Source: Octopus vulgaris
Taxonomy: Eukaryota
DNA length: 64,000 bases
Direction of reading: 5' to 3'
NCBI GenBank assembly: GCA_951406725.2
Contig: OX597814.1
Coordinates: forward strand, 66,836,001 to 66,900,000
Part shown: positions 8,480 to 61,310 of the stretch, in pieces
Layout of the letters: every line of letters starts with the position of its first letter
Numbering within the stretch: the first letter of the stretch is position 1
Notes under the pieces: model-generated
What the model was told of the DNA's origin: nothing
What the model saw: the letters and a program-made list of their open reading frames with translations, nothing else
The model's database searches: none
Translations under genes and position numbers: made by a program

Positions 8480-10612
8480 ATGAAGGAAGACATTACAGAA
8501 TTTTGTAGAAAATTGCGACTTAGTGAGGAACTATTCGACCAGCACAATGAGGATGAGTCACTAGCTAGAAATAAAAGCAACTACACCCCACCAAAAGGTA
8601 GAAATAAAATCCTAGACGAATTCTGTGAGCACATTACAAACTTCCCCTACCAACACTTACACAAACCAAAACCCAAACCAAACCTCAACAAGAAAGAGTG
8701 GGAAGAATTAAACAAATTAAAAAATGAAAGATCTATCACCATTAAAGAGGCCGATAAAGGAAGTGCAGTAGTCTTAATGGAGACAGAATACTATATCAAC
8801 TTAGCACTCTCCACCTTGGAAAATGGAACATATTACGAAAAGGCTGAACACTACAATCAACAGAAAATTATGAGAAACTTAAAAACCCTGATCAACCCCC
8901 ACAAAGAAGAACTCACTAACAAAGAATTCAACTTCATCACAAATTTCACTAGTAAAACCAGCCTCTTCTACGGTATTCCCAAAATTCATAAAAGCGAATT
9001 AATAAGTAAGGCATGCAAGGAAGCCACAAACTCTGTAATCAATGTCCCCTCACCAAATGACCTCAAATTGAGACCTATAATAGCAGGTCCCGCGTGCGAA
9101 ACCCACCGCCTTAGCAACTTCATTGATACCCTTCTCAAGCCGTTCCTCAAACACATTAAAAGCTACATAAGGGACGATCTAGATATGCTTAACCACCTCC
9201 CCAATACACTTCTTGCTGAACAAACCCTGCTAGTAACATTCGATGTAGTTAATCTTTACTCCAACATCCCCCACAACCTAGGAATAGAAGCTATCCAATT
9301 CTGGCTGGATAATTACTCCAACGAACTCCCACACCGCATCAAAAAGGAATTTATTTTAGAAGGACTCAAATTCATCTTAGAGAATAATTTCTTCACCTTC
9401 AACAACAAATTCTACAGACAGAAAATCAGGGACGGCAATGGGAACGAAGACAGCTCCCACTTACGCCAACCTAGTCATGGGATACCTGGAAATCACCCTC
9501 TATAATAACGTTCTTAACCACTCTCCACACACACATAGAGAAGAACTGGAAGAGATATCTTGATGACTGCTTCATCCTTTGGCCCGAAACCGTCGAGAAG
9601 CTTAAAGAATTTCACACCCTTATAAATGGGCTCAACACAAACATTATTTTCACAATGGAATACAGCCCTCAACAAATTCCCTTCCTCGACATCCTCATTA
9701 AAATTCACAACAAAAAAATAGAAACAGACATATACTACAAGCCCACAGACTCCAAGCAATACCTCCCTTTCAATTCATGCCACTCTAGACACGTTAAAAT
9801 TAACATTCCCTACAACTTAGCCAAGAGAATTTGCACTATAGTCTCCAATAAAAACACCCGTCTCTTACGTCTACAAGAACTCAAGGGCACATTAACAAGC
9901 AGGGATTACCCCACGTCACTAATTGACAATGGGATCCAACGCGCCCTAAAACTCAGCACACAGGAACTTAGACGCCCTAAACCTGTTACATCGAAACCCC
10001 ATACTCTACCATACATCTCTACACACAGCCCCCTCAACAATGAAGCTTTTGACACCATCCTCCAGAACATTCCTGTATTAAAAAAGGACCACAGAATGAA
10101 CCAAATCCTCCTAACACACGAAATCATAAAGAGCAAAAGGCAACCCAAATCATTGAAAACCATCCTAACAAATGCCAAAGTACTGCCAACCACAGCAACT
10201 AAACCCACAGTAAACAAATGCAATAGACCCAACTGTGGTATATGCATCAACCTAATAGAAGGTCCGGAATTCCTTTTTAAACAAGGACAACGTTTCACAG
10301 TAAAACACAACTTCACATGCGCATCAGAAAACCTAGTATATGTCTTAACTTGCTCGGGCTGTAATGAACACTACATAGGCCAAACTAAAAATAGCCTCCG
10401 CCAACGCATGACTGTCCACAGATCCCAAATAAAAATACAGGAATACAGAAAAATAGCACTTAGTGCACATATTGATACCTGTGCCGCACAACTCCATCCC
10501 AATTTTAGAATCTTTCCCCTCTACAAATTTAAAGACAATGCCACTCATACCCATGGAATCCCACCTTATTAATAAATACAGACCACTTCTAAACACATCC
10601 CCCTAACACGAA
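8480..10612 (+). pseudogene. PLE reverse transcriptase + GIY-YIG endonuclease, frameshifted
   Basis: [34 protein letters not shown] (after a frameshift near 9429), WKRYLDD, PFLD, YYKPT, CNRPNCGIC linker, LVYVLTCSGCNEHYIGQT. Confidence 0.93.
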
Positions 10613-11484
10613 CCCACAACAAACACACTTACACCTGCACACACCCTACACACACCTTTACCCAGATATTAACACCATGACACACGCAAATATATGGTTC
10701 CACACATACACATAATTGAATACGGGTGCAAAATATCCAACACTATTTTTTGGAAATGTCTGTAAATATTGACTTCACACAAACACGTTGCTTCCCGATA
10801 CAGGCACAAGGCCAGCAGAACTATAAATATTGAAAATTGTACCCACACACGCACACATATATACACGCGCGCGCGCCCCAACATATATATAAACACACAC
10901 ACACTCACACACACACACACACACATACACACACATACACACACACACGCGCGCGCGCGCACACACATACATACATACAGCTCTTCCTGTCCTAAACGAA
11001 CTTACTTATCCAGCTCAAATTCAGTCAAGCGGAAAATACACTCCCTAACTACGCACTGAAAAGCTATTTAAAATATCCACATGACGTCTACTGACCAGCC
11101 TGAACAATAAGAATTTTCAACAACGCTATTTTCGAAAATTCTAAACATTCACGTGACCTCTTTATTATGACCACATCCACGTGACCTCTTTATTATGACC
11201 AATAAGAAATTTTAGGCGCGACACTAGCCAAATTTTAACTTCTCTGGAGCCTTTTTTCTTACCCCAACACCAACTTCCATTCAAACATTCACGTGACCCC
11301 TTCATAATGACCAATCAAAATTGTATTGACCATTGTCCACAAGAAATTTTAGGCGCGAAACCAAGCAAATCCAAAACAACTCTGGAGCCTCTTTTTTCAC
11401 ATATAAGAGACAGCAAACCCAACATAAAGTCAGATAAGAGGAAAAAATCTATCAGAGAAGGAACTCTAATCTCTCTTTAAAAAA

Positions 11485-11526
11485 TATATTTTGATAAGCA
11501 TAACAAATGCGCAACCGGTAAAAAGA
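11485..11526 (+). ncRNA. Minimal type I hammerhead variant (U3-A8) in PLE1 3' end; mirror copy on minus at about 11744-11785
   Basis: TTGATAA-gcat-aacaa-atgc-GCAA-ccgg-TA. Stem II is 4 bp and stem III is the palindrome ACCGGT. A13C and a weak stem I suggest damage. Confidence 0.55.
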
Positions 11527-11823
11527 ACTTTCACCTAATTAAATTACATAAATTACTTAAATTATTTTGTCAGCATTTTCTTCATTTCCTTTTTATATAT
11601 CACAACTCGTGTTCCACATCTCCTTTTTTATATATATATATAAAAGGAGATGTGGAACACGAGTTGTGATATATAAAAAGGAAATGAAGAAAATGCTGAC
11701 AAAATAATTTAAGTAATTTAAGTAATTTAATTAGGTGAAAGTTCTTTTTACCGGTTGCGCATTTGTTATGCTTATCAAAATATATTTTTTAAAGAGAGAT
11801 TAGAGTTCCTTCTCTGATAGATT

Positions 11824-36410: not shown

Positions 36411-36813
<403 letters not shown>

Positions 36814-40495: not shown

Positions 40496-41750
40496 CAGGG
40501 GTTGAACAAAGTAATGGAAACAACTAGCATCATAATTTCCAAATACATATAAAACCGTCAAATGCTTGTTTATTTTTATGTTTTTTGATTTATTAATAGT
40601 GTTGCTTAATATCTTTCGCTAAAATTGATATTTCTTTTCAGATATTATGAGAAAAAAGTAATTAAATTTCATTAAAATGACAGGTGCATCGGACTTTCAA
40701 AGAGGTCAAATTGTTGGGGTTTGTATGGCAGGCGCTAACGTAACGAAAACAGCCGAAATGTTTGGTGTATCAAGAAGTACTGTCTCTAAAGTAATGACAG
40801 CCTTTGAGAAAGAGGGGAAAACCTCCTTGCTGCGACAAAACTCCGGAAGAAAACCAAAACTTTCAGATAGGGACTGTCGGACCCTTACGCGAATTGTTAG
40901 AAAGGATCACAAAAGTACAGCTCCCAAAATTACTGCAGAAATTAATGATCACCTCGAAAACCCAGTTTCCACAAAAACAGTTCGCCGGGAGCTGCGCAAA
41001 GTCAGATTTCACGGGCAGGCTGCAATCAGGAAACCACTACTTTCAAAAACAAACGTCGCAAAGCGTTTAGAGTGGATTAAAAACCTACAGAATTGGTCCC
41101 TAGAGCAGTGGGAAAATGTTATTTTCTCGGACGAGTCATCCTTTACTTTATTTTTGACCACAGGCCGAGTATACGTGTGGAGACAGCCAAAAGAAGCATT
41201 TGACCCTACTGCCTTCTTCCAACTGTAAAACATGGAGGAAGATCTGTGATGATCTGAGGGGAGGCTATATCTTGGAAATTCGCCGCCCCAATGGTTTCCT
41301 TTCAAAGCAGAATCAATAGTCAAGACTATTTAAGCATTTTATCTGATCAAATTCATTCTATGCTTGCGGAACTGTTTCCGAAGGGAAACGCAATCTTTCA
41401 GGATGATAATTCACACAGCTAAAGTTGTTACTGAATAGCACGAGGAACATTCCGGTGAAGTTGAACATCTTATCTGACCAAAACAGTCTCCAGATCTTAA
41501 TATTATTGAACATTTATAGTACATTTTAGAAAAACAAGTAAGGCCTCGATATCCTCCACCATCATCACTACAAGAACTGGAGACTGTTTTAGATGAAGAA
41601 TGGACAAAATTCCTTTGGAAACCATTCAAACTTTGTACGAGTCCATACCTTGTAGAGTTCAAACTGTAATTACTGTTAAAGGCAGTCCTACATCATATTT
41701 AAATAAATTTGTTTGAAAATTTAAGGTGTTTCCATCATTTTGTCCAACCC

Positions 41751-41811: not shown

Positions 41812-43305
41812 AACAGAGGCACCCGGCGTTGCCTGGCAATGAAATTTTTCCTTACATATTGGGAAAAAAAGCAAAATATCTTGTATAGAAATTTGTTATT
41901 CTAAATTCAATTTATTCTTCAATTGGGATACAATTTATTCCTTAATTGGGAAATCAATTCTGAATTCATAATGCAAAATAATGATAATAATAAATGAAAA
42001 TACAAGATTTACCACTTTTATGAAAGGAGATAAATTCTACCACATATGTTGAAGGAAATTATGTAAGACCTTCTTCATACATTCTTTGTTTTCTGGTTTG
42101 GAGCATAGACAAATACGTCTTGCAAATTACCTACCCTACATAAAGCTGACCATGAGAAAAGCAAACCAGTAAATTTCAAAGACTGGCCTTGAGCTTTTTT
42201 AATAGACATTGCAAGGCAAAGTCGCATTGGGAATTGTGTTCCTTTGAACTCAAATAGTATGTTGGTTTGATTGGAATTCTTGGAATGAAGACCTCTTCCC
42301 CAGAGGAACATCCAGGGATGATGATAGCTTCTGTTAGATTAGGTGACAATGTCTTCACAATCAACCTCATCTCATTACCTAATTTAGGAGGATCTAAATT
42401 TCTTAGAAGCATTATTGGGACTCCTACCTTCAGAAAAAGTTTATGTGGATAATTTCCTGGTGAATCAAGAGAATTAAGGAACTCTGTTAAGTAATGGATA
42501 GCTTGATTTTCATCAAGGACTGAATCAACTGATTTGTACTTCTTAATGAATGTTGGAATCTTATTCATTAATTGATGGTTAATCCTTGCTACTGTATCAT
42601 TTTTTGCCCTTTCGCACAACCATTTATGTGAATTATAATTGTTACTTAAGTCTAGCAATACCCTGTTCTTCAATTCAGCTGGGGAATTCACCATGATAGT
42701 AATATGAGGCAAACTGATATCACCATTCCCATCAAATGGCACGTTCCCATTTTGTAATTGGAGGAGCTAGGTTGAAAACTGTCCCCATGTAATGAAGCTG
42801 GCACGTTAGTATTGAAGGAGAATTTCATGACTTTATTCCATAAGTGTGAAGACTTAATGCATGGTTTTATTCCATCAATTCTCGTTCGTCCCAGAAGGAC
42901 TGGTAATGCCTGTCTGAAGTTTCCCGATGAAACTAATGCAATTCCTTCCATATTGATGCCACTAATGTCCTGTAAGGTCTTACCAAGAGCTTCCATTGCA
43001 CCTCTATGTGACATGGTGCATTCATCCCAAACGATAAGGTGACACAATACTTCTGCTGAGCCTGAATCTTTGCTTATGTTACAAATTGGACCTTCACTTG
43101 TGACCAGGTTTCGAGGTAATTTAAAAGCAGAATTAGCTGTTCGTCCTCCTGGAAGAATGGTGGCAGCAAAGCTAGACAATGGTACAGCAACTGCAATTCT
43201 TTTTTGTTACCTTACCTTAGAGAGAAACAATGTTACAAATGTTTTATCTGTGCCACCAGGAGCATCAAGAAAGAAAATTCCTCTGATTTTTCTGATGATT
43301 GTGGA
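41810..43305 (-). mobile_element. Helitron 3' half (Pif1-type helicase, decayed)
   Basis: Walker A remnant (DAPGGTDKTF), LPGGRTANSAFKLP, VWDECTM, LKVGVPIMLLRNL, FIPRI, QFPMRLCLAMSIKKAQGQSL; 3' hairpin gccaggcaacgccgggt near 41820-41837. Confidence 0.9.
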
Positions 43306-49789: not shown

Positions 49790-49992
49790 AGCTTTCTTCC
49801 AAGGAATCTAGTGCTCTTACCTGAGTTTTTCCTTGGGGCTGGCCAGAAATTTGCCGAAATTGCAAAGATAATTTGGAACTCGACTGAGGAAAGAAAACTT
49901 CGAATGACACGTCCGTGTTTTTTCTTCTCCCTTTTTTGTGTCATCTATCTGTCTGGATGTTTTGCGTTCTTGTCCCATTTTTTGTATTCCTT

Positions 49993-49995
<3 letters not shown>
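49790..49995 (+). mobile_element. Family D element; permuted hammerhead with substrate strand deleted (49837-49904)
   Basis: Homologous to 57675-57880 and 60580-60820; retains ggctg, ccag, gccGAAAttgc, atttgg and CTGAGGA. Confidence 0.75.
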
Positions 49996-50258: not shown

Positions 50259-51049
50259 GAAGAACGAACGCTGGTAAAACAACAAAGATTTCTTCCTCAA
50301 TTATGAAACACAATTCATATTAAGCCATAAATCCCAAAACCCATTCATAAAAGGACCCATAACGAAGACTTCCACTGTCCCCCATAAACACCACCCCCAA
50401 ACCACACCTCAAACACACATACTCTCGAAACCCCCTCCACACAGGACAAAACCTCCCCCAACCATACAAAAAGCCCTTTTCCCCCCTCGAAAAAATTCAA
50501 GCAAGACCCACCTCAAAACCTGGATCGTTAATCATTCTAACCCTCCTTCCCCACCGACAAGAATCATCAAGAACCCCCCATACGCTAGGAATTATTCCCT
50601 TCTCAATGCTCCCCACTCTCACACTAATAACAAACACCTACCCACACCTATACATCCTACCCACACCTATACATAGAATCCCCACACAACGAACCCCATA
50701 CAGTCCACCCAATCAACACCAACATTCCTGCCACATTTCCTACAGATCTTCAAACCCTCACATCCCACACCAACATAATCACTATAACTACATACCCCCC
50801 TACAACCTTCTATACAGTCTACCCTACAAACACCCACAAACCCACCACATTTCTCACGAAACCTTAAACCATCACATCCCATACCAACATAAGCACTACA
50901 ACTACCTACCCCCTTCCAACCTCCCCACCCAACAACACCCCTACACCTACAACCAGAACATTAATAATCAATACACCCCTTACTTCAACAGTCATTTTTT
51001 AGACAGAGTGGAAAAAGACAGGCACCACCGCTAACTCAGACCCAAAATA

Positions 51050-52877
51050 AGAAAACAAAAATAATAAACCTCTCTAATATAACCCTTACACCAACCCAAA
51101 TTAACATCCTAGCCAGAGACTTGAAATTCACACCTACCCCAAGAACACCCAAGAACACCCAAGGATGACATTTCTGAATTTTGCAGAAAACTTCGGTTAA
51201 CAGAAGCTTTTACAGACCTCAACAATGAGGATGATTCAATTGTCCAAAACAAAAGTAACTACCTACCATCAAAAGGAAGAAATAAAGCACTGTACGATTT
51301 TTGCAACCACATCCAGAGTCTCCCCTTTACCCCATACAAAACCAAGGTTAAGTCCAACTTTAATAAGGATGAATGGAAAAACCTACGAGACCTACAACAG
51401 GACAAAAGCCTTACTATCAAAGATGCCGACAAAGGTAGTACTGTGGTCCTTGTGGACACGGATTTTTATAAACACCTAGTGCTTTCCTTGCTAAACAACA
51501 ACACTTTCTATGAGGTAATCACCAACTATAAACAACAAAAAACACTAAAAAACCTCACCACCCTCATACTCCAACACGGTCAAGGGCTCACGGAAAAAAT
51601 GCAAGCCCAACCTCTTTTATGGCCTTCCTAAAGTCCATAACCGAAGCCTGCAAACTTTCCTCTGACATCCACATCAACATCAAAGCACCGGAGGACCTAA
51701 AACTAAGGCCCATCGTAGCTGGCACCTCCTGCGAAACACACCGCTTGAGCAATTTCCTGGACATCCTTTTGAAACCTTTCCTTAGTCACATCTACTTAAT
51801 GGAAAACTGGAAAAGATACTTAGATGATTGTGTCATCATATGGAAAAAATCTTATGAAAAGCGTCTGGAATTCAAAACCACACTGAACAACATACATCCC
51901 AACATTCAATTCACTATGGAATTCAGCAAACATCATCTCCCTTTCCTTGATCTCCTAATTATAAAAACACCTAACAACCAAATCACAACAGACATCTACC
52001 ACAAACCTACAGACTCACAACAATACCTCCTCTTCAGTTCATGCCACCCAAAACACACCAAGATAAATATCCCTTTCAACTTAGCTAAAAGGATATGCAC
52101 CATTGTCTCGGATCCCAAAACTCGAGAAATACGCCTTCAAGACCTCAAAAAACACTATTACAACGCCAATATCCCTCCACACTCATAGTCTATGGAATAA
52201 AACGTGCCAAAAATAATACACTGAAAACCACCCAACACAGTAACACACCCAACCCCAAAATACTTCCATACATTTCCGCCCACAACCCCAAAAATATCGA
52301 AGCATACACCACAATCATACAAAACCTCCCCTTACTGTCCACAGACCCAAAAATGAATAATATTATCAATACTCATAAAATCCTTAAATGCAAAAGGCAA
52401 CATAAATCTTTGAAAAAACTCTTAACAAATGCCAAACTTCACACACCACATCCATCCCCATCAGTTAAAAAATGTGCACGCCCTAACTGTGGTACCTGCC
52501 CCTTCCTACTTGGAGGCTCTGAATTTACTTTCAAACAAGGAACAAAGTTTAAAATCAAGACCAACTTCTCCTGTTCTTCCGAGAACCTCATCTACGTTCT
52601 CACATGCGCCCGTTGCCAACACAATTATGTTGGACAAACGAGCCTTCCTTTACGTAGAAGAGTAGCGGTCCATAAAGAACAGATAAATCTCCCACAATAC
52701 CGTCAAATTCCACAAAGTAGCCACATAGACTCTTGCGCTAGAGATAAAAATCCTAAATTTCACATATTCCCTTTCTACCAATGTGAAGACGGAATCTCTA
52801 CACAAGAAAGAATCAACAAGGAGAATTTTTTAATTGAAAAATTTCAAACGCATCTTAATATGCAAACTCCACGATGA
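51050..52877 (+). pseudogene. PLE RT + GIY-YIG, frameshifted, RT core deleted
   Basis: IINLS...LKFTPTP, DADKG, LRPIVAG; jumps from FLSHI to WKRYLDD; CARPNCGTC; LIYVLTCARCQHNYVGQT. Confidence 0.92.
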
Positions 52878-53261
52878 CCATACTCCTCTTTCTAGCATCC
52901 TATCTGACAAAAAATTGATATATGCATCCTGTTTGCATCATTCCAATTAAAGAGCATAAAATCCACAGAGTTGTCTCCCCTTACTCACAGGAACTGGATA
53001 ACTCCTACCCCGTTTCCTGTTTTGACACACATTTACCCAACGCTTTAAACTAATCACTACATTTAAACACATGGATCCTAATCCTCCAAAAAAGCTTTTC
53101 CAAGGACTATTATTGAACTCTAAAAGCATAAAGACTCTACAATGTATTGGTATACTTATTTATTAATTTTTGTATATACGTATTATTATTTTTTTGAAAA
53201 AATCATTGTAAATTTCTTTTTTCCCCTTCCTCAATTTTAAAACAATTTCTTTTCCCCTTCC

Positions 53262-57622: not shown

Positions 57623-57671
<49 letters not shown>

Positions 57672-57674
57672 TAT

Positions 57675-58320
57675 ATGTAGAAAAATACAAACTGGGACAA
57701 GAACGTAAAACATTTAGAAGACGATACAAAAAACATGGACGGGACATTCGAAGCCTTCAATCTTCAGTCAAGAACCGGATCATCCTAGCAATTTCGGCTG
57801 ATTAATCTTGAGATCGCTCCGATCCGGCCAGCCCCAAGGAAAAACTAAGCTACGAGCATTAGATTTCTTGGAAGAAGGATCGAATGTATACGAAACAGGG
57901 ACAGAAAAACGGACGATGCCACACGAATATAAAATACAAAAAACAATAATGGTAAAAACAGGACAAAAACAGCGGGTGTCTTACGACTAATAAACAGTAC
58001 AACAAGTTTAGCTGGCGTATTTGGAAAAAATGCCTTTATCGGCAGACGAAGACAACAATGTTCTCACGGCAGTGGCCGGAGGCCAAAAGGCTGATTTTGA
58101 GCCAACAGAGTGTAGCAGTCCTATAAAGGACGATGTTACTGTTGTTTTAACCCCAGGGAAACATATTTTTCAGCTGGCTATCGACACAGTTTGTGACCAG
58201 GAACCTAGGTTTGTGAGTATCACGTAAGGCTAGAAATAGGAGCGACGTCATCCCTTGCAAATGCTATACGGACACATATCCGTTAACGGTTATTTTCAAT
58301 ACTTTTCTCGCTGTTTGGTG
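57675..58320 (-). mobile_element. Family D element ending at (TA)n
   Basis: 57680-58030 aligns with 60580-60965; non-coding. Confidence 0.8.
57747..57833 (-). ncRNA. Candidate permuted/pseudoknotted hammerhead (intact copy)
   Basis: ggctg-gccggatc-gg-agcgaTC-tcaaga-ttaat-cagcc-GAAA-ttgct-aggat-gatccggt-tcttga-CTGAAGA-hairpin; all four helices pair fully. Confidence 0.7.
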
Positions 58321-58324
58321 CGTT

Positions 58325-58611
58325 CGTTTCTTTTTTGCATCTGTTATTTCATTATTGATTTTCTATATCACTGAAGATATATCCTTTAATTTGCCGCTTT
58401 TTTTTTACACGAAATGAGAAAATACTATGTGGAACCGTTATTTTAACGAATTATATCTATTTATCATTCGAAAACACATATCTGCATCGTCGGATGACCC
58501 TAAACCTGTTGTTAAGTATCCTACTCGTGAGGGATCGATGCTAGATGTGACGAAACAATTGCAGTGATTAATTATATTCTCGTATCTTCCATTTTTCGTC
58601 TTTCACTTACC

Positions 58612-58615
<4 letters not shown>
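58325..58615 (+). mobile_element. TA-adjacent element with split hammerhead-like motif (about 175-nt stem II region)
   Basis: atca-CTGAAGA at 58367-58377; GAAA-caattg-cagtgat at 58552-58568; internal hairpin cacatatctgcatcg / cgatgctagatgtg. Confidence 0.45.
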
Positions 58616-58660
<45 letters not shown>

Positions 58661-58666
<6 letters not shown>

Positions 58667-59918
58667 GGCTTAGTAAAATAAATTACTTTGCCGCATACTG
58701 AACTCATTAGAAATAGCAGCCAAAAAAACTTTTTTAAAACTATTTCCAATACTTAAAGAAAATCTCTCTCATATAGTGCTTGTTCAATTCAACTCACGAA
58801 AGTATGAGGGTAGAAACATTAAAAAATCAAATGCAAAGGTTATTTGAGAACGTACGTTTCAAGATTAGTCAAACTCGACACTTCTATCATCAGCTCAGAA
58901 CTCCCTGGTTTGGATTTGAAAACACTGAAAGCAGGAGTATACCTATTCGGCTTCCCATCGCCTCCGAAGATCCACTCGCAACTAACAGTGCCAGCAAATT
59001 CAAATATGCAAGCGAAGAATTTCTGCTCTCCCCCTTCCACCAGCGTGGGTTAAAATCAACAAACAACATGCTTTTTTCGGTAAAATCCGAGGCATTAAAT
59101 AGAGAAAGATGAATTATAATTTCAACAATTGAGGGTAAAATTAATTAATTAATCAATTTCACCAAGTGTTCAGTATGCAAAGGGACCATTTAAGGCGAAT
59201 TCAAATTATTACATTATATAAAAGGGCTTAGTAAAATAAATTACTTTGCCGCATACTGAACTCATTAGAAATAGCAGCCAAAAAAACTTTTTTAAAACTA
59301 TTTCCAATACTTAAAGAAAATCTCTCTCATATAGTGCTTGTTCAATTCAACTCACGAAAGTATGAGGGTAGAAACATTAAAAATCAAATGCAAAGGTTAT
59401 TTGAGAACGTACGTTTCAAGATTAGTCAAACTCGACACTTCTATCATCAGCTCAGAACTCCCTGGTTTGGATTTGAATTTGCTGGCACTGTTAGTTGCGA
59501 GTGGATCTTCGGAGGCGATGGGAAGCCGAATAGGTATACTCCTGCTTTCAGTGTTTTCAAATCCAAACCAGGGAGTTCTGAGCTGATGATAGAAGTGTCG
59601 AGTTTGACTAATCTTGAAACGTACGTTCTCAAATAACCTTTGCATTTGATTTTTTAATGTTTCTACCCTCATACTTTCGTGAGTTGAATTGAACAAGCAC
59701 TATATGAGAGAGATTTTCTTTAAGTATTGGAAATAGTTTTAAAAAGTTTTTTTGGCTGCTATTTCTAATGAGTTCAGTATGCGGCAAAGTAATTTATTTT
59801 ACTAAGCCCTTTTATATAATGTAATAATTTGAATTCGCCTTAAATGGTCCCTTTGCATACTGAACACTTGGTGAAATTGATTAATTAATTAATTTTACCC
59901 TCAATTGTTGAAATTATA
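58661..59918. mobile_element. Retrozyme-like element: 558-bp unit, ~1.5 direct copies plus an inverted copy, in (TA)n
   Basis: aaaagggcttagtaaaata at 58662 and 59220; inversion from about 59471; three HHR copies. Confidence 0.88.
59579..59631 (+). ncRNA. Type I hammerhead with canonical core; identical copies at 58845-58897 (-) and 59402-59454 (-)
   Basis: tgag-CTGATGA-tagaagtgtcgagtttgactaatctt-GAAA-cgtacg-TT-ctca; palindrome AACGTACGTT; irregular stem II. Confidence 0.75.
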
Positions 59919-60019
59919 TATATATATATATATATAAGCAATTGGATGCGCGCACATGTGTGTGTGTGCGCGCGCGCGAATGGTGTGTGTGTGTGTGTAT
60001 GAGCGTGTGTGTGTAATAA

Positions 60020-60480
60020 ATAATTTGGACAAAAAGGTATAATTCAGTTATTGTGTGTTTAAATGTTGAGTAGAGCATCGGCACAGTTTAGGTTACCTGT
60101 TGTCAACCGCAGTTGTGGTACACCTCTGTTGGATCTACTTCAGGTACTCTGCAGTGACAGTTAAGGTAATAATATTAATTAATAGTAGGAGATGGATTTC
60201 GTTTTAGACTTTTATTAGGGACAACATATGTTTTGACAAATCAGTCTGGGTCTATCCAAGTACATTAATAAATTAAAAAAAGTCTCCTTAGAGATTATTA
60301 GTCTCAGCTGGCTTTTAGTTGTAAGCCCACCAAGTTAAGGAATGAATAGAAGCAAATAATATTGTAGAAACGCAAAAAATTCAAGTAGGAATTCAAATCT
60401 TGCCTTCCAGTTTAGATAAAATGACCTAATCAGCTTTCGTTGTCATAACTGCTTAGAGAAAAAAGGAAGTAGAAGGAGAA
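60020..60480 (-). mobile_element. Non-coding element with decayed hammerhead at 60219-60263
   Basis: 60178-60263 is homologous to 61914-61996. Confidence 0.5.
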
Positions 60481-60548
60481 AGGAAGATTAATACTTAGAC
60501 AAGTAGTTTCATGTTCGTGCCTATACATACAGACAGAGGGACAGACAC

Positions 60549-60579
<31 letters not shown>

Positions 60580-60586
<7 letters not shown>

Positions 60587-61310
60587 CAAAATGGGACAAG
60601 AACGCAAAACACCCGGACAGTTAGGTGATACAAAGATAGGACAACAAAACAACCAGATAGATGATACAAAGAAAACAAAGACGGGTCATTCGAAGTTTTC
60701 TTTTCTCAGTCAAGTACCAGATTATCTTCGTAATTTCGGCTGATTATACTTGAGATTACTCCAATCCGGCCAGCCCCAAGGAAAAACTAAGCTAAGAGCA
60801 TTAGATTTCTTGGAAGAAAGCAGCGACTGTATACAAAAACAAGGGCGGAAAAAACGGAAAATATTAAAGAAATACAATAAAAATAATAACAGGACATAAC
60901 AATAGGTGTCTTTCGACTAAGGATGAATTAAATTAAGCTAGCGTGTGTGGAAATGAAGCCTTACGGCAGGGATACGAGTTTTCACAAACACAGGGAGGAA
61001 TATCGATGCTGCACGGACAGCGGCCGACCAAGAAAGAAAGAACAGGCTTGGCCGAAAGCCGGTCACATGGGAAGAGGAGAGAGAGAAGTAGAAGCGGAGG
61101 GACAGAAGAATTAAGGAGGGACAAGAAAAAATGACAAGGCACAGTGAAGGGGCTGATAGACGGAAATAGAGTCGCAACAAACTTGCTTGCTGTTAAATTA
61201 TCATTTGTAAGTTTGCGGTATGCATTACGTCTCTTACCTTCGTTTATACATGTGAAATCTGTGATGAGCCTAAATGACGCTGATGACCTGGAGTCGCCTC
61301 TGGTATACAT
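60580..61310 (-). mobile_element. Family D element, second subfamily
   Basis: Aligns with 57675-58030 and 49790-49995; abuts (TA)n. Confidence 0.8.
60689..60775 (-). ncRNA. Candidate permuted hammerhead, covarying copy (G8A in core)
   Basis: ggctg-g-ccggatt-gga-gtaaTC-tcaagta-taat-cagcc-GAAA-ttac-gaagat-aatctgg-tacttga-CTGAGAA. Confidence 0.65.

Follow-up and report, generated by a model that had tools for sequence, protein, structure and literature searches.

A predicted knotted hammerhead with a split core in a high-copy non-coding retroelement family of Octopus vulgaris

Do paired changes between copies of a hammerhead-like motif in the octopus genome reflect selection on an RNA fold, and what would such an RNA do? 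The question arises from a stretch of 64,000 nucleotides of Octopus vulgaris DNA (assembly GCA_951406725.2, contig OX597814.1, positions 66,836,001 to 66,900,000), called the window below. A preliminary description compared two copies of a repeat, family D, at 60.7 kb and 57.8 kb. It reported paired changes in three helices of a "scrambled hammerhead" and took them as a sign of selection on this fold in the source elements. All letters given for the two copies were found, on the minus strand, at 60703-60775 and 57761-57833. Those given for a third copy, at 49.8 kb on the plus strand, were found as well, with CCAG/UUGG in helix P and a CUGAGGA core.

The 60.7-kb copy was delimited by blastn against the fetched loci to 60585..61149 (minus strand). 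It belongs to subfamily B, is truncated at the 5′ end and has its 3′ end in a (TA)n run. Searches of the 2.8-Gb genome with each copy separated the relatives into two groups, A (the 57.8-kb type) and B (the 60.7-kb type). Group B relatives of the 60.7-kb copy are 89-92% identical to it by similarity search, and those of the subfamily A copy (57685..58108, minus strand) are 98-99% identical. The latter copy carries an intact motif at 57744-57886 (minus strand), with the predicted cut between 57812 and 57811. The third copy (49791..49995, plus strand) is of B type and has an internal deletion of about 19 nt, the cut site being among the lost bases. A short copy of a further subfamily, E, at 36658..36740 (plus strand), has as its first base the first base after the predicted cut (+1). 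The window also contains PIF1 helicase fragments at 42180-43200 (minus strand), which we take to be Helitron-like, a Tc3-type transposase fragment at 40660-41230 (plus strand), a near-perfect inverted repeat at 58723-59753 with 283-nt arms 465 nt apart, and a near-perfect 189-nt palindrome without a spacer at 11446-11823.

Inherited changes were separated from decay by comparing the 60.7-kb copy with the majority sequence of its 29 best relatives, all of subfamily B. There were 18 differences in 311 bases, 4 of them within the motif. The A>G change at 60767 in helix P is shared with 1 of the 29 relatives and the C>T change at 60758 in stem III with 2; the G>A change at 60731 in stem III and the G8A change at 60704 are shared with none. 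G8 is kept in 29/29 relatives, and the suggestion that G8A arose by decay after insertion is borne out. The role of G8 in hammerhead catalysis is established, and the 60.7-kb copy is predicted to be inactive through this change. Of the three paired helix changes described, that in stem I is real for subfamily B. Relative to the 57.8-kb type, helix P of subfamily B has two clean two-sided changes; the described P change thus contains a two-sided change inherited in B, together with a G·U wobble private to the 60.7-kb copy. The stem III pair GUAA/UUAC is, in this copy, coincidental and private. Subfamily B has GCAA/UUGC, a one-sided change, and a CUGAGGA core. Of 53 copies in the genome that combine UUAC with the usual GGAG leader, 4 have GUAA, versus 1 of 54 copies with UUGC (Fisher p 0.21), and the pair is therefore not shown to be inherited in the 60.7-kb copy. 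GUAA/UUAC was also considered as a marker of the subfamily to which this copy belongs, and rejected on these counts and on the comparison with the 29 relatives. The same pair is nevertheless real at the family level, being fixed in the young subfamily E (26/26 loci with intact upstream sequence, out of 30 fetched), whose 3′ part has 911 exact matches in the genome. The four private changes of the 60.7-kb copy in the motif are ordinary decay; the real result lies in its family.

A 17-mer shared by family D has 5563 exact matches in the genome. The core columns show 96-100% conservation across 125 unique full domains. All four letters occur at N7; at position 17, C, U and A were seen and G never. 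Subfamily majorities retain CUGANGA with A, G, U or C at N7, as the preliminary description had anticipated for a fold under selection. Inherited two-sided changes are present at I-3, I-4, I-6, III-4, P-3 and P-7, while stem II is invariant inside the family. An inherited A·C mismatch occupies P-3 in 32/125 copies, and III-4 has 15 C·A cells, mostly from loci chosen for UUAC. At the family level there is support for selection acting on this fold in the source elements; the comparison of two copies had blended decay with inherited changes.

The strand order of the motif is X5′-H0-10.x-P5′-16.x-UH-1.x-11.x-GAAA-15.x-P3′-2.x-CUGANGA-X3′. In the 60.7-kb copy, read along the minus strand, it begins in the leader with the 5′ strand of helix X (60814..60828, with a private change at 60827), the partner of which is the trailer after A9. 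Hairpin H0 (60776..60813) comes next, its 3′ strand stopping directly before G10.1, and the 5′ strand of stem II (10.x, 60771..60775) lies upstream of all other core parts. Then come the 5′ strand of helix P (60763..60769), equivalent to the stem I-II interaction helix of type-SGC hammerheads as described in the sections of Eckert et al. 2023 drawn on here, and the 5′ strand of stem III with U16.1-C17 (60754..60759). The predicted cut is between 60754 and 60753. Downstream of it are the 1.x strand of stem I (60747..60753, partner 60710-60716), the block of 11.x, GAAA and 15.x (60730..60742; stem III pairs 60756-60759 with 60730-60733) and the 3′ strand of helix P (60717..60723). The 2.x strand of stem I with the CUGANGA core follows (60703..60716, the core itself at 60703-60709), and the 3′ strand of helix X (60686..60702) begins right after A9. 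The hammerhead core letters (CUGANGA, GAAA, and UH with H not G) are present in the family majorities, the 60.7-kb copy deviating at G8. The order is not the circular three-way junction order of types I-III: it is S-G-C. The earlier term "scrambled" is incomplete. The knotted order is that of the known non-circular S-G-C cycle, and what the term misses is the new feature, the split between A9 and G10.1; helices X and H0, predicted to bridge this split, lie outside the coordinates then given. In subfamily E (L189-L218) H0 contains a duplicated hairpin, a U bulges out of P and stem III has two additional pairs; copies of this subfamily often form dimers and trimers.

To quantify pairing, a balanced alignment of 48 copies was used, consisting of 39 of the 53 listed D copies and 9 of the 14 copies of an older relative, family G, whose rows are displaced by one column at helix P. 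Of 2368 pair cells 90.0% were paired, compared with 86.0 +/- 0.3% in shuffles (0/500 as high) and 29-50% with slid partners. Stems III and I reached 99.2% and 96.2%. Cells with two-sided changes numbered 114 versus 38 +/- 5 in shuffles, and such changes were seen in X, H0, I, II, III and P. Counted as pairs, those with a two-sided change (15) were no more numerous than in shuffles (114/500 as high), and kinship of the copies, which are not independent when related, inflates the other pairing measures. The two X pairs nearest A9 were unpaired in 31 and 34 of the 48 rows.

Single-strand folding, which is blind to knots and recovers only X, H0 and parts of the remainder, gave z values of -2.05 for the 57.8-kb copy and +0.48 for the 60.7-kb copy. 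In the nested fold of the 57.8-kb copy P pairs with an extended stem III and CUGAAGA with 2.x; by this model, the nested fold is a putative competing, inactive form. Rfam returned no hammerhead among the 150 matches listed of 327 for the whole window, nor among 14 matches up to E 10 in 57650-60950. A minimal Penelope hammerhead made of CUGANGA and a downstream CGAAU was considered and dropped: the CGAAU is part of helix X, and downstream of it there is no partner for stem I.

A loose S-G-C core descriptor had 136 distinct matches in 1.14 Mb of fetched DNA, which is enriched for these repeats by design, 0 in the reversed DNA and 2 in five local shuffles; chance is therefore excluded. In the largest descriptor group all four extra helices could be formed in 105/159 cases with the sequence's own upstream DNA and in 20/270 with foreign upstream DNA. 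In smaller groups this contrast ranged from clear to absent. A sequence-free S-G-C descriptor located further repeats in the flanks, each of them high-copy (633-2694 first-look candidates). Families G, F2, F3 and F4 and a Naiad family keep the order despite differing sequences, so that the core is held in six families. In the majorities of the further families X3′ likewise begins right after A9, X5′ abuts H0 and H0 abuts G10.1. The linker between stems I and II is 3-5 nt in D, G, F2, F3 and F4. By analogy, the predicted cut in the further families would come after UC, UU or UA. In F2 linked variation is seen within stem II: of 23 parsed rows, the 10.3/11.3 pair is G-C in 11, A-U in 9 and G-U in 1, the other 2 looking misparsed. 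Stem II of F3 is weak and bulged. Another TA-ended repeat, at L010 (about 2000-2250, oriented) and L017 (about 2150-2350, oriented), has a stem II hairpin in front of GAAA and a core variant of the CUGU type; judging from these letters, it is possibly a further hammerhead variant.

The carrier of the family D motif is a non-coding tandem repeat inserted at (TA)n, with a GC content of 42-43%. Its units are 830-832 nt in subfamily A and 843-858 nt in subfamily E, with longest ATG frames of 93 and 66 codons, and they form dimers, trimers and longer arrays. In one array (G000:C6:85539700-85544900) at least 6 units are arranged in tandem, one of them shortened to 655 nt. At 120-149 nt beyond the cut, 68/94 copies run into a TA-type stretch at their 3′ end. 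Head-to-head or internally inverted copies, typical of Penelope-like insertions, were observed at L089, L101, L126, L127 and L175.

For the 5′ ends with a (TA)n junction, a count by hand was made over two match lists, of 411 and 337 entries, using the first 100 rows of each (about 4 rows ambiguous); contigs C1-C4 were kept for equal range and duplicates merged. Among 151 such ends, 116 fell in +1..+8 relative to the predicted cut and 35 in -1..-22 (p 1e-37). The former comprised 42 at +1, 4 at +2, 21 at +3, 16 at +4, 2 at +5 and 31 in +6..+8; the exact +1 peak is helped by a 1-nt match to (TA)n. On C1 there were about 6 ends per base in +1..+12 and fewer than 2 per base in +13..+28 (n=103). 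Family F4, where the +1 base is C, had no end at -2, -1 or +1, and all its 40 matches taken together gave 30 ends after the cut and 10 before it (p 1e-8). A pattern requiring two mismatches before +1 proved too narrow and retained 8 copies. In a set of 94 copies taken without selection, the first base was +1 in 5 and lay within +1..+6 in 14, one of these 14 being an internal deletion. About 80 of the 94 run across the cut site; therefore most templates were uncut or re-joined. From the distribution of copy ends, the RNA would thus often have a 5′ end at the predicted bond. At L061, L067 and several other junction rows the first 8-20 bases after the cut are repeated at the 5′ junction, which looks as if the RT restarts at the RNA 5′ end.

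We consider the following account probable: the 60.7-kb locus is a decayed member of a non-coding, high-copy retroelement family; the RNA of this family is predicted to form a knotted S-G-C hammerhead with a break in the core between A9 and G10.1, and it likely cuts itself after C17, which sets the 5′ end of the RNA that is copied. Paired changes across families, together with copy ends piled up at the predicted cut, suggest that self-cutting likely takes place in the animal.

The same fold might be real and selected without cutting, as a signal for RT binding or priming, the 5′ edge then marking a transcription start or an RT stall. Such a role would agree with the majority of copies running across the predicted site, and with the opening of the core at a place thought intolerant of it (PMC10085705, in the sections used). 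We consider it unlikely, given that the catalytic letters are kept in six families, that N7 and position 17 vary within hammerhead rules and that the edge coincides with the predicted bond in two families whose sequences differ; moreover, no Pol III A or B box was found in the A and E units.

The split itself depends on which strand forms stem II. In an ordinary type-SGC ribozyme with an intact block C, stem II would use bases immediately 3′ of A9, leaving the upstream strand, X and H0 as a switch or accessory. In D and G, 11.x paired with the bases after A9 in 4.7% of cells (10-24% when slid 1-3 bases in the 3′ direction), as opposed to 97.9% with the upstream strand across the 48 copies. The upstream strand shows two-sided changes at 3 of 5 pairs between D and the old relative G. 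The G10.1-C11.1 pair, next to G12, is present in 47/48 rows when the upstream strand is used, and also in F2, F4 and the Naiad family. Of the 136 descriptor cores, 107 have an upstream stem II partner and 13 a downstream one. An intact block C is a second possible fold for F4 and, in part, for F2, where a G-run after A9 can pair with 11.x with one base skipped (in F4 through wobble pairs), and in subfamily A a complement of 4 bases lies 5 nt past A9. An assignment of F4 to the intact form was tried and abandoned, as it rested on one mutated copy (L156) and the family majority fits the split form. Taken over the families, an intact block C is very unlikely.

A hammerhead that cuts only as a dimer or with a protein, taking strands from two neighbouring tandem units, is a model with precedent in minimal Penelope hammerheads, which cut slowly and as dimers only according to the part of PMC4209133 used here, and tandem dimers and trimers are common in family D. 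Every helix partner in family D is, however, inside one stretch of 145-170 nt and stem III has 4-6 bp, making a second copy unneeded on paper; we regard this model as highly improbable. That the paired changes are a chance outcome of neutral decay, true of the four letters in the 60.7-kb copy, is refuted at the family level by two-sided changes fixed in subfamilies and by the same wiring in families of different sequence, and we give it practically no weight.

The predicted self-cutting RNA has its closest known counterparts in the type-SGC and type-CSG hammerheads (PMC10085705; comparisons here and below are with the parts of each source that were drawn on). It shares with them the cyclic S, G, C order with all core letters, a short linker between stems I and II, and a helix, here P, joining bases 5′ of 2.x and 3′ of 10.x. 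The related SGC and CSG ribozymes cleave in vitro, the SGC form needing the same P helix. In those ribozymes block C (2.x-CUGAnGA-10.x) is contiguous and assumed unbreakable, whereas here it is interrupted, and X and H0 stand at the interruption. They come from metatranscriptomes (SGC) and metagenomes (CSG) and from no known organism's genome in that account, in contrast to the genomic animal repeats with thousands of copies described here. Insertions next to CUGAnGA never go beyond 1-2 nt according to Eckert et al. 2023 (PMC10085705), and for this reason activity with a four-way junction beside CUGANGA is without a precedent that we could find. One unpaired base between 9 and 10.1 is common in Penelope-like hammerheads (PMC4209133). 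Judged by its sequence, the octopus RNA would work like a hammerhead of the SGC/CSG cycle lacking one defining feature, the contiguous block C, and it is predicted to cut. A split-core form was not found in the open-access literature searched.

Non-LTR retrozymes of animals (Cervera and de la Pena 2020, PMC7229834; Li et al. 2026, bioRxiv 10.64898/2026.07.22.740005) resemble family D in being non-coding tandem repeats with one hammerhead per unit and a GC content below 45%; circular RNA and a Penelope-like helper have been proposed for them, as here. They differ in having canonical type I hammerheads and units of about 150-450 bp, compared with 830-860 nt and a split-core knotted motif. Minimal Penelope-like hammerheads (PMC4209133) also have the core near the 3′ end of the element; they are of type I order, have little or no stem III, depend on dimers and are without P, X and H0.

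A link to Naiads, a clade of Penelope-like elements, is suggested by wiring. In the part of Craig et al. 2021 (PMC8557442) used here Naiads have no canonical hammerhead, 8 being marked "half core". Naiads and family D have in common the (TA)n target, 5′ truncation, partial tandems and inverted 5′ pieces; the former have an ORF with an N-terminal GIY-YIG, CxC and RT, while family D units are non-coding. Inspected by eye, the published 3′ ends of Naiad_Obim and Naiad_Ovul in the supplement show the split order, as do three near-identical records in its cnidarian part, with one further record showing most of it. Two Naiad ends near Naiad_Hcon contain, also by eye, a complete type-CSG motif with an intact block C in the order C, S, G; this type has so far been reported from two metagenomic sequences only (PMC10085705). 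On the letters, the split order and the C, S, G order can be derived from a single cycle by opening it at different points. A 22-nt motif from the octopus Naiad ends has 169 exact matches in the genome. All 12 Naiad copies sampled there look decayed, and of 10 extended loci one has an RT remnant upstream of the motif (E 1e-5, which does not reach the Pfam cut-off). No sequence link was found between family D and a coding Naiad.

A young Penelope-like family with an intact 781-aa ORF, a C-terminal GIY-YIG and many genome copies (L310 and L315 among them) is a candidate helper. In two loci that were read over their whole length its 3′ end lacks the D-type motif, and at 30 GIY-YIG loci any CUGANGA within the next 900 bases was found in only 2. 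The 3′ end of this family carries a hammerhead-like stem II and GAAA with the first core letter changed, followed by (TA)n. In the window, two broken Penelope-like elements with a C-terminal GIY-YIG match are situated at 8500-10570 and 50360-52880 (+). Judged by the wiring of the family D motif, the helper of family D is probably of Naiad descent.

The predicted ribozyme would serve the propagation of family D as follows. X and H0 would stack on one continuous leader strand and hold A9 beside G10.1, replacing the covalent link. Multimeric transcripts would be cut to unit length after C17, and a share of the unit RNAs would be re-joined into circles, X keeping the two ends together. A Penelope-like RT/endonuclease would prime at (TA)n. 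Copying to the cut end would give short copies, and copying across a joined or uncut junction would give long copies, dimers and trimers.

We lean, with some reserve, towards a broader reading. It holds that this is a new hammerhead architecture in which the chain enters and leaves in mid-core and a two-helix splint replaces the A9-G10.1 bond; that it supplies the ribozyme missing so far from the Naiad clade and from several retrozyme families derived from this clade; that it is among the most numerous invertebrate ribozymes; and that X clamps the ends, the same fold driving the formation of circles. If true, it would break the stated rule that block C of a hammerhead cannot be interrupted, and the split wiring would explain why searches with descriptors and Rfam miss such motifs. 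A junction-tolerant hammerhead core would offer RNA engineering a new place for attaching switches. It would also place non-circularly permuted ribozymes in animal genomes and answer the apparent absence in Naiads of the ribozyme that other Penelope-like clades carry.
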